NCBI GenBank assembly: GCA_951406725.2
Contig: OX597833.1
Span: 1,922,001-1,986,000 of the forward strand
Length of the DNA stretch: 64,000 nt
DNA from: Octopus vulgaris
Taxonomy: Eukaryota
Direction: 5' to 3'
The notes under the pieces were generated by a model. The model was not told where the DNA came from, did not search any database, and saw only the letters and a list, made by a program, of their open reading frames with translations. The position numbers and the translations under genes are program-made. Positions 13,580-20,889 of this stretch are shown in pieces. Within the stretch, counting starts at the first letter, position 1. The number at the start of each line of letters is the position of its first letter.

Positions 13580-13744
13580 ATATATATATATATATATATA
13601 TATATATATATATATAAGTTCAGCAAAAATATAGATTCGAATGAATATGGTACTTAAGTTGGATGCACCAGAATTCTGTATGGTGTTATCCATAAAAATC
13701 CGTGGGGTGATTATAATCAAAATAAGCAACAAGAATGACTCCGG

Positions 13745-13837
13745 TAATTTGGTACAGTTGTTTCGCACTACATCATTTTATTAAATGTTGTAAGTATTAC
13801 AATAGATTTAAGATGCTGAGTACTCATCAGCCAATTA
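13745..13837 (-). ncRNA. Type I hammerhead ribozyme
   Basis: Minus strand: taattgg CTGATGA gtac...gtgc GAAAC aact GTA ccaaatta. Confidence 0.8.
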
Positions 13838-14222
13838 GATAGGTTTTCCATTAATACAAAAGTTTTCAAATCAAGTAGTAACATTATAAAGAAGGTAGAT
13901 ATACGGACAAAGATGTAGATTTAAATTTTAAAAACATATGAGGTAGTAAAGTCCTTCCACTTACTGACCAAGCTATGGCTGTATCTAACTGCTATAAGGC
14001 TAGAAGCAATATAGAATTTTTTACCCCATCCCTACCACTAAAAATCTTTATTACTTCTAACCTTATAGCAGTTAGATAGAGCCATAGCTTGGTCAGTCAG
14101 TGGTTAGACTTCACTGCCTTATATGTTCTTAAAATTTAAATATACATCTTTGTCTGTATATCTATCTTCTCTATAATGTTGCCACTTGATTTGAAAAGTT
14201 TTGTATTAATGGAAAACCTCTA

Positions 14223-14315
14223 TAATTGGCTGATGAGTACTCAGCATCTTAAATCTGTTGTAATACTTACAACATTTAATAAAATGATGTAGTACGAAAC
14301 GATCGTACCAAATTA
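14223..14315 (+). ncRNA. Type I hammerhead ribozyme
   Basis: taattgg CTGATGA(14230) gtact..long hairpin..agtac GAAAC gatc GTA(14307) ccaaatta; stems I, II and III all pair. Confidence 0.88.
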
Positions 14316-14810
14316 CCGGAGTCATTCTTGTTGCTTATTTTGATTATATATATATATATATATATATATATATATATATATATATATATATATATGAATA
14401 CAATGTTTGGTTTAAGGAGCCACATCTGACGGGCACCACGATGGAGATAAGGTGTAAGTACAAGAGGGGATTAGATTCCTTACGAGGGGTAAACAACCAC
14501 CATATATATGTATATATTTGTGTGTGTGTGTGTCTGTTTGTCCCCACACCATTGCTCGAACACTGATACTGGTATGTTCATGTTCCCGTAACCTAGCGGT
14601 TCGGCAAACAATTTCCGATAAATAAGTACTATAAGTGACTGAAACATGTACAAGATTAAAAGAATATAATACACACATACATACATGCATACATACATAT
14701 ATATATATATATATATATATATATATATATATATATATATATATATATATATATATATATATGAAAAACATGTCAAGATAGAAAATGCTAAAATAATTTT
14801 TTAAAGAACA

Positions 14811-14853
14811 TTTCAGTACCGGTTTCTGTCATTTGAGACCTTTTCAACTGTAA
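14811..14853 (-). ncRNA. Minimal hammerhead-like motif with U3:A8 core variant, in (TA)n insert 14762-14995
   Basis: Minus strand: ttacag TTGAAAA g gtc tcaaat gac a GAAAC cg GTA ctgaaa. Confidence 0.55.
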
Positions 14854-15096
14854 CAATTAAAAAATTAAATTTAGAAACATTAAAAGAAAAGTTTTTTTTA
14901 AAAGAATATTTGTATAGTGTTCAAATATAAGTGGCATTTTCCTTGTTTCTGCCTTTCTCTGTCTCTCTTGATTACACTTGTGGGTTCGAGGTCGGTATAT
15001 ATATATATATATTCTACGGGTTGACAAGTTCAACAGATGCTATGTGGGGCCACATAGAATATAATAATTGTAGACAGTTCTGAGAATAATTGATAT

Positions 15097-15515
15097 AGGC
15101 GCAGGAGTGGCTGTGTGGTAAGTAGCTTGCTAACCAACCACATGGTTGCGGGTTCAGTCCCACTGCGTGGCATCTTGGGCAAGTGTCTTCTGCTATAGCC
15201 CCGGGCCGACCAATGCCTTGTGAGTGGATTTGGTAGACGGAAACTGAAAGAAGCCTGTCGTATATGTATATATATATATATGTGTGTGTGTGTGTGTTTG
15301 TGTGTCTGTGTTTGTCTTCCTAGCATTGCTTGACAGCCGCTGCTGGTGTGTTTACGTCCCCGTCACTTAGCGGTTCGGCAAAGGAGACTGATAGAATAAG
15401 TACTGGGCTTACAAAGAATAAGTCCCGCGGTCGATTTGCTCGACTAAAGGCGGTGCTCCAGCATGGCCGCAGTCAAATGACTGAAACAAGTAAAAGAGTA
15501 AAAGAGTAAAGAGTA
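15097..15515 (+). mobile_element. SINE family C, full length
   Basis: tRNA-like head, CORE-like block, internal microsatellite, (TAAAAGAG)n tail. Confidence 0.92.
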
Positions 15516-15678
15516 TGTAAGTCATAATGGTTAGTCCGATAAATTATACTTTGAATTCCCGACGTTCCCGAAGAGCCAGAAACGTGGCATGGCGCATTTG
15601 GTTGGACTAACGGATATAGATTAAATAAATGCTACATTCACCCTGTTTTTACTATTTAAGAATCGTACTTAATGTAAA

Positions 15679-15981
15679 TGTGGAGGCACAATGGCCCAGT
15701 GGTTAGGGTAGCGGACTCGCGGTTTCGATTCCCAGACCGGGCGTTGTGTGTGTTTATTGAGCGAAAACACCTAAAAGCTCTACGATGCTCCGGCAGGGGG
15801 TGGTGGCGACCCCTGTTGTACTCTTTCGCCACAACTTTCTCTCACACTCTCTTCCTGTTTCTTCAGTAACGCAGCGATGGACTGGCGTCCCGTCCAGCTG
15901 GGGGGGGGGGACACATACGCCTTAGAAACCGGGAAACCAGGCCCATGAGCCTGGCTAGGCTTGAAAAGGCCGAAAAAAAAA
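15679..15981 (+). mobile_element. SINE family B head with tail type 3 and a 12-bp TSD
   Basis: B head followed by GATGGACTGGCGTCCCGTCCAG... and poly(A); TSD CTTAATGTAAAT at 15668 and 15983. Confidence 0.85.
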
Positions 15982-17854: not shown

Positions 17855-18067
17855 CTGCAGTCAGTCGCCATGATAGATCGTTAGCTCCTACACGCATTTT
17901 TTTCTCTCCTTGTTTGTCTCCTTGTGATTTTTTCTGTGTCCCTTTCTGTAGAAGAGCGTAGGCTCGAAACGTTAAAGACTTTTTCTATTCCTGAGCGTTA
18001 TACTAATACATCTGTTTGTTTTGTACACCACCTGTCCCCGTCTTTTGATTTTTCGTAAACTCTCCCT
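17855..18067 (+). mobile_element. (TA)n-inserted element, family H4, with a minimal hammerhead-like motif (17938-17979)
   Basis: cttt CTGTAGA a GAGC gtag GCTC GAAAC GTT aaag; homologues at 43519, 55590 (-) and 63180. Confidence 0.75.
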
Positions 18068-18555
18068 ATATGTATATATATATATTTATATATATATGTG
18101 TGTACGTGTGTGTGTGTGTATGTATGTATATATATATATACATACATATATATATATATATATATATATATATATATATGTATGTATATATATATATATA
18201 TATATATATATATATATATATATATATATATAAATAGATGAGTGTATACCTTGTTTAAACCTGCGTTAACTCCATTTTTTATTCATATATATATATATAT
18301 ATATATATATATATATATATATATATATATATTAATCAATATAGGGTGGCAAAAAATTTTGTAGAATTTTATTGCCACCAGCGGCCTAGTGGGAAAAAAA
18401 TTAAATAGTCATAGACCATTTATAAGTTCAACATCACAATCAAGGAACGGCCATAATAGGCCATTCACCCACTAGAAATAACAGCCAAAGCTTCAACCGC
18501 AAAATAACATTAATTCCGCAAACCAGGAGAAAATTAAAAAAACATTTACCCTGTA

Positions 18556-18662
18556 ATTTCTTATACGATGCACCGTTTCATCTATTGTTTAATGGTAAAC
18601 TAACCTGATTAAATTAAATCAAGCCAATCTTCCATAGGCCCTTAGATTCGTCAGTAAGAAAT
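18556..18662 (-). ncRNA. Type I hammerhead ribozyme
   Basis: Minus strand: atttctta CTGACGA atcta...tagat GAAAC ggtgcatc GTA taagaaat. Confidence 0.88.
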
Positions 18663-18894
18663 AGCCAGATCGGAACAGATATTTTCACGAGGCACTTCTG
18701 TCCCTGCCTCGGCAATATCTGATCTATATTGATTAATTATGAATTTTCTGGTTGATTCCGTAATGGAATCGGCGGCTTATATTTATTTGCTGCCGATAAA
18801 TTTGGCGCGAGTGCGATGATTTGAAAATTTTAGGTCAGATATTGCCGAGGCAGGGACAGAAGTGCCTCGTGAAAATATCTGTTCCGATCTGGCT

Positions 18895-18999
18895 ATTTCT
18901 TACTGACGAATCTAAGGGCCTATGGAAGATTGGCTTGATTTAATTTAATCAGGTTAGTTTACCATTAAACAATAGATGAAACGGTATCGTATAAGAAAT
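18895..18999 (+). ncRNA. Type I hammerhead ribozyme
   Basis: atttctta CTGACGA(18903) atcta...tagat GAAAC ggtatc GTA(18991) taagaaat; perfect 8-bp stem I. Confidence 0.88.
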
Positions 19000-19269
19000 T
19001 ACAGGGTAAATGTTTTTTTAATTTTCTCCTGGTTTGCGGAATTAATGTTATTTTGCGGTTGAAGCTTTGGCTGTTATTTCTAGTGGGTAATATTATGGCC
19101 GTTCCTTGATTGTGATGATATATATATATATATATATATATATATATATATATATATATATATATATATATGTATGTATGTATATATACATGTATGTGTA
19201 TATATATATATATATATATATATATATATATATATGTATACGAGAAACAAGCAACAAGAATGGATTAGT

Positions 19270-19360
19270 TTTTAGTACAATTGTTTCATACAAAGACAGG
19301 CTTTATTACAAGTTGCAAAAATTGCAGCATATAAAAGTGTCCCGTACTCATCAGCTAAAA
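19270..19360 (-). ncRNA. Type I hammerhead ribozyme
   Basis: Inverted copy of 19963-20053. Confidence 0.85.
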
Positions 19361-19962
19361 TACATATGAGTTCTCCAGACATCTTAGTGGGTAAGGTTAT
19401 ACTCATGAAATATTGAAGATAATTCCATTAAAGGCAGATATAGGTTGTAAACAGTTTTCCAAAGTTCCTTAATGATGATGCACAGTCTTATCACAGATTT
19501 TTAAAAACTTATTAGTTTCGAAGAGAAGATGAATTAATCCATAGTGTAGATTTAAATTTCCAGAGATATGAGGAGGATGATGCACAGACTTATCACTGGT
19601 TTTTAAAAACTTATTAGCTTCACAGAAAAGGTGAATTAATCCGTAGTGAAGATTTAAATTTCCAGCGGTAAGAGGAGGAATTTCATACTCACAGACGATG
19701 AATTTAACTATTCTTAATCCACAATCATTTCATGCTATATGATAAGGTAATTTGCCATATTACTGCTCTCCGTGCACACTATGGATTAATTCATCTTCTC
19801 TTTGAAACTAATAAGTTTTTTAAAATCTGTGATAAGACTGTGCATCATCATTAAGGAACTTTGGAAAACTGTTTACAACCTATATCTGCCTTTAATGGAA
19901 TTATCTCCAATATTTCATGAGTATAACCTCACCCACTAAGATGTCTGGAGAACTCAAATGTA

Positions 19963-20053
19963 TTTTAGCTGATGAGTACGGGACACTTTTATATGCTGCA
20001 ATTTTTGCAACTTGTAATAAAGCCTGTCTTTGTATGAAACAATTGTACTAAAA
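19963..20053 (+). ncRNA. Type I hammerhead ribozyme
   Basis: ttttag CTGATGA(19969) gtac...gtat GAAAC aatt GTA(20047) ctaaaa. Confidence 0.87.
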
Positions 20054-20889
20054 ACCAATCCATTCTTGTTGCTTCTTTCTCGTTTATAATCACCCCACAT
20101 TACTGTATGGATAACACCATATAGTTTTTCTGGTGCATCTAAGTTAAGTACCACATTCAAGTAAATTCATTGGAATTTACTTGAATCTTAATTGCTTTGA
20201 TATATATATATATATATATATATATATATATATATATATATGTATATATGTGTGTGCATATATATATATATATATATATATATATAGAAAGAGAAATAAA
20301 CGAGAAAGACAGAGAGAAAGAGACGACATGTTTAGTGTAATCTCTGGTCGTTGTCTTGTTTAAATGTACATGTATATGTGGCGATCATAACATATATTTT
20401 GGAACGTATTCTGAACAAAAATGTTTTTTTTTTTTTCTTCTTATCCTTCAGACACAAGAAAATGTCTCACAAGATACTGGCAGAATACATTGTAAATATA
20501 ATAAAGAAACTTATAATCGGGTTCAACAGAGACACCATACATGTGTTTACCACATTGTTAAATAATACAAACACCTATAACTTATGAAGAGTGTTAGATT
20601 CTTCAGCGTAATCTACTGGCTTTGATTTTGTTCTTCATTCTTCTGTTATCTTGTTTAATGGAATTTGTTAAACAGACATTAGAGTTCTTTTTTTTTTTAG
20701 GTTGTGTTTAGAAATCAGTTCTTGTCAGAAGGTGGTGTTACCATTTACGTAAATCCTCCAGAGCTGATGGAACGAGGGGATTGTAAGTGCGTCTTTCAAA
20801 TTCTATCGAAATAAGCTTCGCTTTTCATTTGTTCACGATTGATTAAAATTAATGCCAATCCTGGTAAAGAATTCGAAGGAATCGACTGC

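Follow-up and report, generated by a model that had tools for sequence, protein, structure and literature searches.

Ribozyme-bearing fold-backs in Octopus vulgaris DNA as probable Penelope-type insertions: two truncated Hydra-clade elements and a piece of a tandem retrozyme

Penelope-like elements (PLEs) are described, in passages of PMC8557442 and PMC3846280, as insertions in which a pseudo-long terminal repeat (pLTR) is accompanied by an inverted, 5'-truncated copy and optionally by a tail, with palindromes at the junctions, asparagine-rich inserts in the open reading frame (ORF) and mobilisation in trans by way of the pLTRs. The Hydra clade, one of the C-terminal EN+ (endonuclease-bearing) clades of this group, is characterised, in the sections of PMC8557442 (Craig et al. 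2021) that treat it, by an RWK motif, a DKG motif changed to DKT, CxCX5C, CxxC and CxH motifs, the lack of a CCHH motif, a hammerhead ribozyme and insertion into (TA)n, and it includes Hydra-1_Obim, a (TA)n-preferring family of Octopus bimaculoides. Here we analyse three fold-back repeats with hammerhead ribozymes at 13616-20200 of a 64,000-nt stretch of Octopus vulgaris DNA (GCA_951406725.2, contig OX597833.1, positions 1,922,001 to 1,986,000 of the forward strand), which we refer to as the window. An earlier note, made from the letters of the window alone, had proposed that they are hairpin retrozymes, an abundant non-autonomous system moved in trans by Penelope enzymes. Our reading is that all three very probably arose by Penelope-type target-primed reverse transcription into (TA)n; the first and third can be identified as stumps of autonomous Hydra-clade elements and the second as a piece of an ORF-less tandem retrozyme.

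Mobilisation of animal retrozymes by PLEs has been proposed before (PMC7229834, Cervera and de la Pena 2020), as has a circular template for retrozymes in parts of the same account, and such a template had likewise been proposed earlier for PLEs. Li, Clavereau and Pollet (2026), in the portions of their preprint consulted, argue for PLE mobilisation from co-occurrence and homology and also float local satellite expansion (10.64898/2026.07.22.740005). The insertion reaction itself is described for Poseidon of Anolis, in which both target strands are nicked and extended and reverse transcription starts at two internal sites that bound the tail (PMC11167929, Frangieh et al. 2024, in part). For O. 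vulgaris, a 2026 annotation counts 31 recently active Penelope-like families, with no detail of clade or ribozyme in the portions of its text consulted (PMC13282606).

The three elements share one layout, as the earlier note had described it: inverted arms, (TA)n on either side and a tail at one end only (about 96, 100 and 114 nt in elements 1, 2 and 3). They also lack an ORF, as it had said, the longest ATG-started frames being 47, 28 and 48 amino acids (aa) respectively. The run of (TA)n to the left of element 1 occupies 13580-13615, and similar runs lie at 14349-14395, 18286-18331, 19118-19240 and from 20201; the window holds 94 such runs of at least 20 nt. A descriptor scan found six complete type I hammerheads, two per element and all facing outward, and returned no hammerhead in the reversed window and none in 20 of 20 Markov simulations.

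Element 1 has inverted arms at 13712-14020 and 14040-14348 (309 nt, 91% identity). Its minus-strand part (13616-14021) ends at a fixed site, which we call A, and comprises the end of a 3' untranslated region (UTR), a hammerhead (13747-13836, minus strand, cut after 13753) and a 5' leader of a Hydra-clade PLE, family 1; it is 91-92% identical to both repeats of locus L091, which flank an ORF for reverse transcriptase (RT) and endonuclease (EN) that is in three pieces. The tail, 96 nt from a second fixed site, B, to site A, lies at 13616-13711 on the minus strand. The plus-strand arm (14020-14348), with a hammerhead with palindromic stem III at 14224-14313 (plus strand, cut after 14307), ends at site B; it corresponds to parent positions 603-932, against 623-1026 for the other arm, and its 20 nt of additional 3' UTR are what had appeared as a spacer.

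The inverted arms of element 2 match in two pieces, 18467-18726 and 18831-19088, at 99-100% identity. The arm that ends at site A (18332-18726, minus strand) consists of positions 326-488 and then 1-232 of a 488-nt retrozyme monomer, with 99% identity to the monomer of L034, and carries a hammerhead with an 8-bp stem I at 18556-18662 (minus strand, cut after 18564). The arm that ends at site B (18724-19117, plus strand) consists of positions 219-488 and then 1-132, overlaps the first by 3 nt and has its hammerhead at 18895-18999 (plus strand, cut after 18991). Element 3 has inverted arms at 19237-19547 and 19776-20086 (311 nt, 97% identity). Here the arm ending at B (19241-19776, minus strand) holds 536 nt from a second Hydra-clade family, family 3, made up of 3' UTR and hammerhead (cut after 19276), is 95% identical to both repeats of L158 and includes the 228-nt stretch that had been called a spacer; the arm ending at A (19781-20200, plus strand) holds a hammerhead (cut after 20047) and leader and is 97% identical to L158:2486-2905, where the match continues into the ORF. 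Its tail, about 114 nt of 5' leader from B to A, lies at 20087-20200 on the plus strand. A 102-nt direct duplication at 19474-19677 is already present in the parent 3' UTR. In all three elements the B arm has upstream sequence missing from the A arm, and the A arm has the tail missing from the B arm. The spacer is surplus parent sequence of the longer arm rather than a separate part.

Copies elsewhere in the genome identify elements 1 and 3 as 5'-truncated, inverted insertions of autonomous Hydra-clade PLEs, as judged by sequence comparison. Searched against the genome, element 1 had 3134 candidate matches, from which the best 40 were scored and 30 fetched; on their upstream side several of these 30 reach into the last part of a GIY-YIG ORF, and their 5' breakpoints lie at scattered positions. 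Element 3 (3007 candidates) gave the same pattern. In L091, which belongs to the family of element 1, ribozyme, leader, ORF, UTR and second ribozyme follow one another in a unit of 3465 nt from cut to cut, and the same order is found in L143, L144, L145 and L158 with 4623-4678 nt. Identity to the repeats of L091 is 91-97% for element 1; element 3 shares 95-97% with those of L158 and 74-86% with the intact L143. The ORFs of both nearest copies, L091 and L158, are broken. The tail is the 5' leader, which continues to an ATG 181 nt (L091) and 211 nt (L158) after the cut. Same-strand repeats of both families stand 3.5-4.7 kb apart around an ORF, not as ORF-less tandem monomers, and exact 25-nt core matches number at least 252 for family 1 and at least 1164 for family 3. 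Thus copies joined to RT and GIY-YIG ORFs do exist, which bears out the suspected link to Penelope, but elements 1 and 3 are truncated autonomous elements and not non-autonomous ones; as unique truncations of PLEs of a described clade they are, by the earlier note's own reasoning, no new system.

The parent proteins were collected with an RT query of the genome, which gave 10707 candidates; 126 were scored and twenty loci extended. A single ORF joins the RT to a GIY-YIG-type endonuclease at the C-terminus; stop-free frames reach 1091 aa among those scored, with 976-1091 aa in L141-L145. They have a YRDD core in the RT, RWK in L158 and L143 and RWI in L091, DKT in all PLE proteins examined, the CxCX5C linker as CNCRIRSKC or CKCRIKSKC, CQLC, and CIH or CVH around the E and N residues; CCHH is absent, since the stretch that separates the halves of the nuclease motif contains no pair of cysteines. 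The RT motifs agree by eye with the Hydra rows in the part of the PMC8557442 supplement compared. Protein motifs, a canonical hammerhead in the terminal repeat and (TA)n insertion together place the predicted parents of elements 1 and 3 in the Hydra clade as outlined in that paper. Differences from its description are the unit length of 3.5-4.7 kb against 'generally <3 kb', a length that is descriptive rather than diagnostic, ORFs of up to about 1090 aa with asparagine-rich inserts, a tail of about 96-115 nt and a hammerhead loop II of 46-58 nt. Hydra-1_Obim differs as a family, its N-terminal sequence and ribozyme row in that source being unlike those found here, and six short motifs of the present families are absent from the supplement text consulted, in which line breaks may hide matches.

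Domain searches recognise these proteins poorly. Pfam gave one weak GIY-YIG match (E 0.0014, below the cut-off, in one of five pieces), no RT domain and no match for whole Hydra ORFs, and no solved structure matched a profile of the PLE protein. Young Hydra families with long open ORFs thus escape Pfam. Named relatives of the protein come from Octopus sinensis and O. vulgaris. Within the 64-kb window itself, tblastn found no Hydra ORF. A more distant Hydra family (L149-L152 and L159; about 63% RT identity, open frames of 835-850 aa) has a very long 3' UTR rich in CA/TA repeats and, by eye, a ribozyme whose stem II is mismatched at its base. At L145/L146 (G000:C2:37615500-37629000) two near full-length Hydra copies lie head to head in a fold-back of about 10 kb. 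The first ~280 residues of P0021, a named octopus ankyrin-repeat protein model, are Hydra ORF, and this model is probably a gene-prediction fusion.

Element 2 has another origin. Its genome matches (the best 40 of 1168 candidates were scored) form head-to-tail arrays with a 488-nt period and up to 14 full units that are 95-100% alike; the longest stop-free stretch of the monomer in six frames is 60 aa, its GC content is 37%, and the family has 992 exact core matches. It also has no LTR (long terminal repeat), primer-binding site or polypurine tract, no search aimed at the last two having been made. The first 100 of these fall into 42 loci, with 16 single, 20 tandem (matches about 490 nt apart) and 17 inverted, in classes that overlap; every same-strand neighbour is about 490 nt away and none lies at ORF distance. 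We therefore regard element 2, on the evidence of its copies, as a piece of an ORF-less, non-autonomous tandem retrozyme whose mobile unit is the head-to-tail 488-nt monomer. It resembles the animal non-LTR retrozymes outlined in parts of PMC7229834 and 10.64898/2026.07.22.740005, which are ORF-less head-to-tail repeats with one type I hammerhead per unit, GC below 50% and PLEs in the same genome, and 488 nt is within the range of 51-972 bp given in the preprint.

The family also has the insertion marks of a PLE. In 25 distinct loci its 3' ends fall, in all but one case, at monomer positions 125-136 (B) or 230-239 (A), and (TA)n adjoins 42 of 44 such ends, which, with the runs flanking the three window elements, upholds the (TA)n targeting that had been claimed. 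Nineteen of the 25 loci are inverted; in 18 of these an A end is paired with a B end, the inner breakpoints are all different, and 17 of the 19 junctions overlap by 1-8 nt. Among the first 100 core matches, all 17 inverted loci have a head-to-head arrangement, and in each of them the two arms agree at a variable letter of the core (chance about 3e-7). Multi-unit arrays are found on both arms of single inversions. The idea of a non-autonomous retrozyme moved in trans by Penelope enzymes probably holds for the element 2 family and fails for elements 1 and 3. In all likelihood the retrozyme is copied by some PLE protein; that its partner is a Hydra family is somewhat more probable than not.

This goes beyond the published link between retrozymes and PLEs, which in the portions of PMC7229834 and 10.64898/2026.07.22.740005 consulted comes from co-occurrence and pLTR homology, whereas the element 2 family has PLE-type ends, target and inversions, and the pLTRs tested show no homology to it. 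In Chlamydomonas, MRC1 and other non-autonomous Chlamys PLEs are likewise multicopy, head to tail and attributed to PLE machinery, but in the account given in passages of PMC8557442 they have no canonical hammerhead and their 3' sequence is, as a rule, also that of autonomous families, unlike the element 2 family.

The same pairing of fixed ends is seen in the other families. Site B lies at about +35 to +43 and site A at about +137 in family 1 and +147 to +163 in family 3. Inverted loci combine A with B in 9 of 9 counted for family 1 (29 loci) and 14 of 14 for family 3 (30 loci), counts to be read with the fact that the queries for families 1-3 contained the tail, which selected one A end per locus and left only the partner arm free. 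A family represented in the window at 40321 gives a position-ordered sample free of this bias (26 distinct loci in genome order, from 30 rows with 4 duplicates dropped), and there each of the 20 inversions pairs A with B. In every family examined, loci differ in where the inversion falls. Arms of one locus are also more alike than arms of different loci, with 6.0% divergence within against 8.9% between loci in one set (10 loci; 2 of 5000 permutations) and 0.9% against 3.2% in a second family set (14 loci; 0 of 5000 permutations), which suggests that both arms derive from RNA of one source.

A scheme that would account for these features runs as follows. An RT/GIY-YIG protein would nick both strands of (TA)n; one complementary DNA (cDNA) would begin at site A and another at site B, both downstream of the cut, on RNA of one source; both would run back through the ribozyme and stop early at variable points, and microhomology, visible as the overlaps of 1-8 nt, would join them into a head-to-head fold-back that bears a tail on one side only. 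With both starts downstream of the cut, this scheme requires a template that is uncut, multimeric or re-ligated. The outcome is like PLE architecture in general, as given in passages of PMC8557442 and PMC3846280, in its inverted truncated copy, its tail at one end leading into the ORF, its junction palindromes or microhomology and its asparagine-rich ORF inserts; the tail is 2-3 times longer than the 30-40 bp described there. Strict pairing of one A with one B end, and arm variants held in common, were counted here and have no counterpart that we found in the sections consulted of PMC8557442, PMC3846280 and PMC11167929.

Several observations weigh against this reading, in addition to the tail-bearing queries. 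Later gene conversion could be a partial source of the similarity between arms. One inverted family-2 locus of the 19, L038, does not fit A with B. Arrays C4a, C5 and C10 contain mosaic variants, and a single trip round a monomer circle leaves these unexplained. Compared with five Hydra leaders and four 3' UTRs, a sample of few of the genome's PLE families, the monomer is no more similar than shuffled sequences are; it also matches none of the ORF-bearing loci collected, among which it has no autonomous partner. In another clade, ribozyme cleavage was not needed and no RNA-DNA homology was seen at the start site (PMC11167929, in the parts consulted); this dispensability in vitro and the mosaic variants together argue against a pure monomer circle. 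Finally, minimum-energy folding of the isolated ribozymes of elements 1 and 3 does not give the active shape (z -1.8 and -0.1), and the covariation given below comes from preselected ribozymes.

In the arrays of L101 (G000:C10) and L103, variants alternate with a two-unit period in part of a 14-unit array, and units 2 and 7 of another array share five private changes; either a multimeric template or later recombination could be responsible. Contigs from four public runs, whose kind was guessed, cover the monomer and its head-to-tail joint and are uninformative on expression or circles; they contain letter changes, unphased, in both partners of base pairs in stems I and II.

As to the ribozymes themselves, the complete outward type I hammerhead claimed for every arm was recovered, including the plus-strand cuts predicted after 14307, 18991 and 20047. 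Stem III is palindromic in three of the six, and loop II has 46-58 nt. This loop is probably why Rfam misses them, there being no hammerhead among the 150 matches listed of 432 for the window or among the 4 matches for element 2. Instead of the claimed 20 or so motifs from roughly eight families, a relaxed scan gives nine complete motifs in the window, from five families by our assignment, the additions being at 40450 (minus), 40459 (plus) and 59791 (minus); 29 of 30 simulated windows had none and one had two. Across seven related families the core varies at position 7 only, 94.5% of stem cells are paired and there are 12 double changes, a score inflated by the pairing-demanding scan that had selected the seven ribozymes; none of 500 shuffles was as good, and slid alignments were 26-45% paired. 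Two divergent rows were left out because they were misaligned. The covariation that the earlier note had asked after is present, and its support for ribozyme function is suggestive, not decisive.

Taken alone, the element 2 ribozyme folds well (z -4.3 for the plus-strand copy and -4.1 for the other), and the weak lone fold of those of elements 1 and 3 is in line with the dimer- or protein-assisted PLE ribozymes described in parts of PMC4209133 and PMC11167929. In folded whole-element transcripts, 89 of 92, 103 of 103 and 93 of 93 bases of the ribozyme region pair with the opposite arm, so the long hairpin RNA that had been expected to carry a ribozyme is predicted to be without a working one, locked as it would be in duplex. 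The ribozyme would most likely act on tandem sense transcripts, cutting them to unit length, rather than on the hairpin.

Among other explanations, one keeps the Penelope machinery and extends it. The 488-nt retrozyme would be an independent circular-RNA parasite, not the leftover of a PLE repeat, with two docking sites spaced as in Hydra elements; a dimeric Hydra RT/endonuclease would prime one RNA, circle or multimer, at both sites from two (TA)n strands, every inverted PLE insertion would be twin-primed, and arrays would be written in one step. We hold this only tentatively and think it rather doubtful; if true, a young, intact host and its parasite in one genome would be a ready system for testing retrozyme mobilisation.

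It is improbable that the element 2 family is instead a satellite that arose a single time from the terminal repeat of a PLE and spread locally by unequal crossing-over (this being one scenario in the consulted parts of 10.64898/2026.07.22.740005), or the truncated end of an unseen autonomous element. Units are indeed closer within arrays than between them (3.3 against 6.9 substitutions), and recombination could give mosaic or alternating patterns; yet the family is dispersed across many chromosomes, and its two fixed ends, the (TA)n beside them and the multi-unit arrays on both arms of single inversions weigh against it. The scoring of only the best 40 candidates leaves some room for an unseen parent, against which stands the uniform spacing of same-strand neighbours.

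Equally hard to sustain is a snap-back, discussed for PLEs in passages of PMC3846280, in which one cDNA folds at a short palindrome, primes itself and is copied, the endonuclease then trimming at site B. Short junction overlaps, variants shared by the arms of one locus and the palindromic apex hot spot of the 40321 family would all suit it. A snap-back arm, however, cannot extend further upstream than its template, and each of the three window elements has a B arm that does (by 20, 107 and 234 nt); the B arm also outreaches the A arm in 5 of 14 inverted family-3 loci. In the window elements each arm holds sequence that the other lacks, so neither copies the other and a simple snap-back is excluded for these three.

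The proposal with which the analysis began, in which fixed hairpin retrozymes give long hairpin transcripts and return to the genome as complete fold-backs, is very improbable and for 13616-20200 already largely refuted: the fold-back layout is common, and in the 40321 family many loci have one apex (with an inverted arm in 39 of the 40 best matches to an apex-bearing query) and the window copy and L182 have an arm-specific variant in common, but such a query selects for the apex, junctions in the position-ordered sample vary by locus around a hot spot, breakpoints in the families of the three window elements vary widely, no one apex and arm length recurs at many loci, and the ribozyme would be buried in the duplex.

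As to novelty, present comparisons make the retrozyme family new, and also the two Hydra families of which the region holds stumps; all of them may already be in Repbase, Dfam or the 2026 O. vulgaris repeat library. Our literature search, in which subscription journals were thinly covered, returned no work about retrozymes in octopuses or about the pairing of A and B ends where PLEs insert in inverted form. Ordinary PLE integration explains a striking fold-back layout, and stumps of this kind may be mistaken for miniature inverted-repeat transposable elements (MITEs) or hairpin RNAs; transcription of the fold-backs, if it occurs, would yield long double-stranded RNA on which RNA editing or small-RNA pathways might act. 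The A/B counts and the one-source arms would extend to Hydra the in vitro result reported for Poseidon in the consulted parts of PMC11167929. Most worth pursuing is the element 2 retrozyme: its PLE signature in ends, target and inversions lends structural support to the published but unproven mobilisation of animal retrozymes by PLEs, and is more direct than the arguments from co-occurrence or homology in the portions of PMC7229834 and 10.64898/2026.07.22.740005 consulted.

The layout had also been said to recur elsewhere in the window. Of the sites named, 40321 carries two ribozymes and 59663 one; 52900 has the 3' half only, and 22162 and 58666 are fold-backs without a hammerhead core. The copy at 52901-53157 is a shorter family 1 fold-back, broken inside ribozyme loop II and without a complete ribozyme. 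The 40321 family (40321-40520 in the window; L181-L200 and L221-L250) is young, has a short-loop ribozyme and 1499 exact core matches. It forms fold-backs at 20 of 26 sampled loci; their junctions differ, but most have the apex no more than about 15 nt from the 5' border of stem I, which makes the edge of the ribozyme a hot spot for stopping or joining. The differing junctions speak against a fixed hairpin for this element too. Six of the 26 loci extend into longer upstream sequence, with no parent ORF seen there.

The abundant family at 22162-22485 and 58666-59000 (L161-L180; 3502 candidates) has two fixed ends separated by 57 nt, is often inverted and is flanked by AT-rich sequence or (TA)n; in L166, L173 and L177 it has longer upstream sequence. 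It is possibly a ribozyme-less PLE end, and to call it Naiad-like would be a guess. At 59663-60050 lies the stump of another PLE family (1433 candidates, 156-nt tail), of which L217 has an upstream GIY-YIG ORF with CxxC and CxH and no CxCX5C linker before the nuclease. Copies of abundant short interspersed repeats, perhaps short interspersed nuclear elements (SINEs), occur at 13231-13583, 15093-15448 and 15681-15970, and two of them flank element 1 in inverted order. Reverse transcriptase fragments of the long interspersed nuclear element (LINE) type lie at 26479-27624, 28450-28900 and 40520-40820, one of which cuts off the right arm of the 40321 element.

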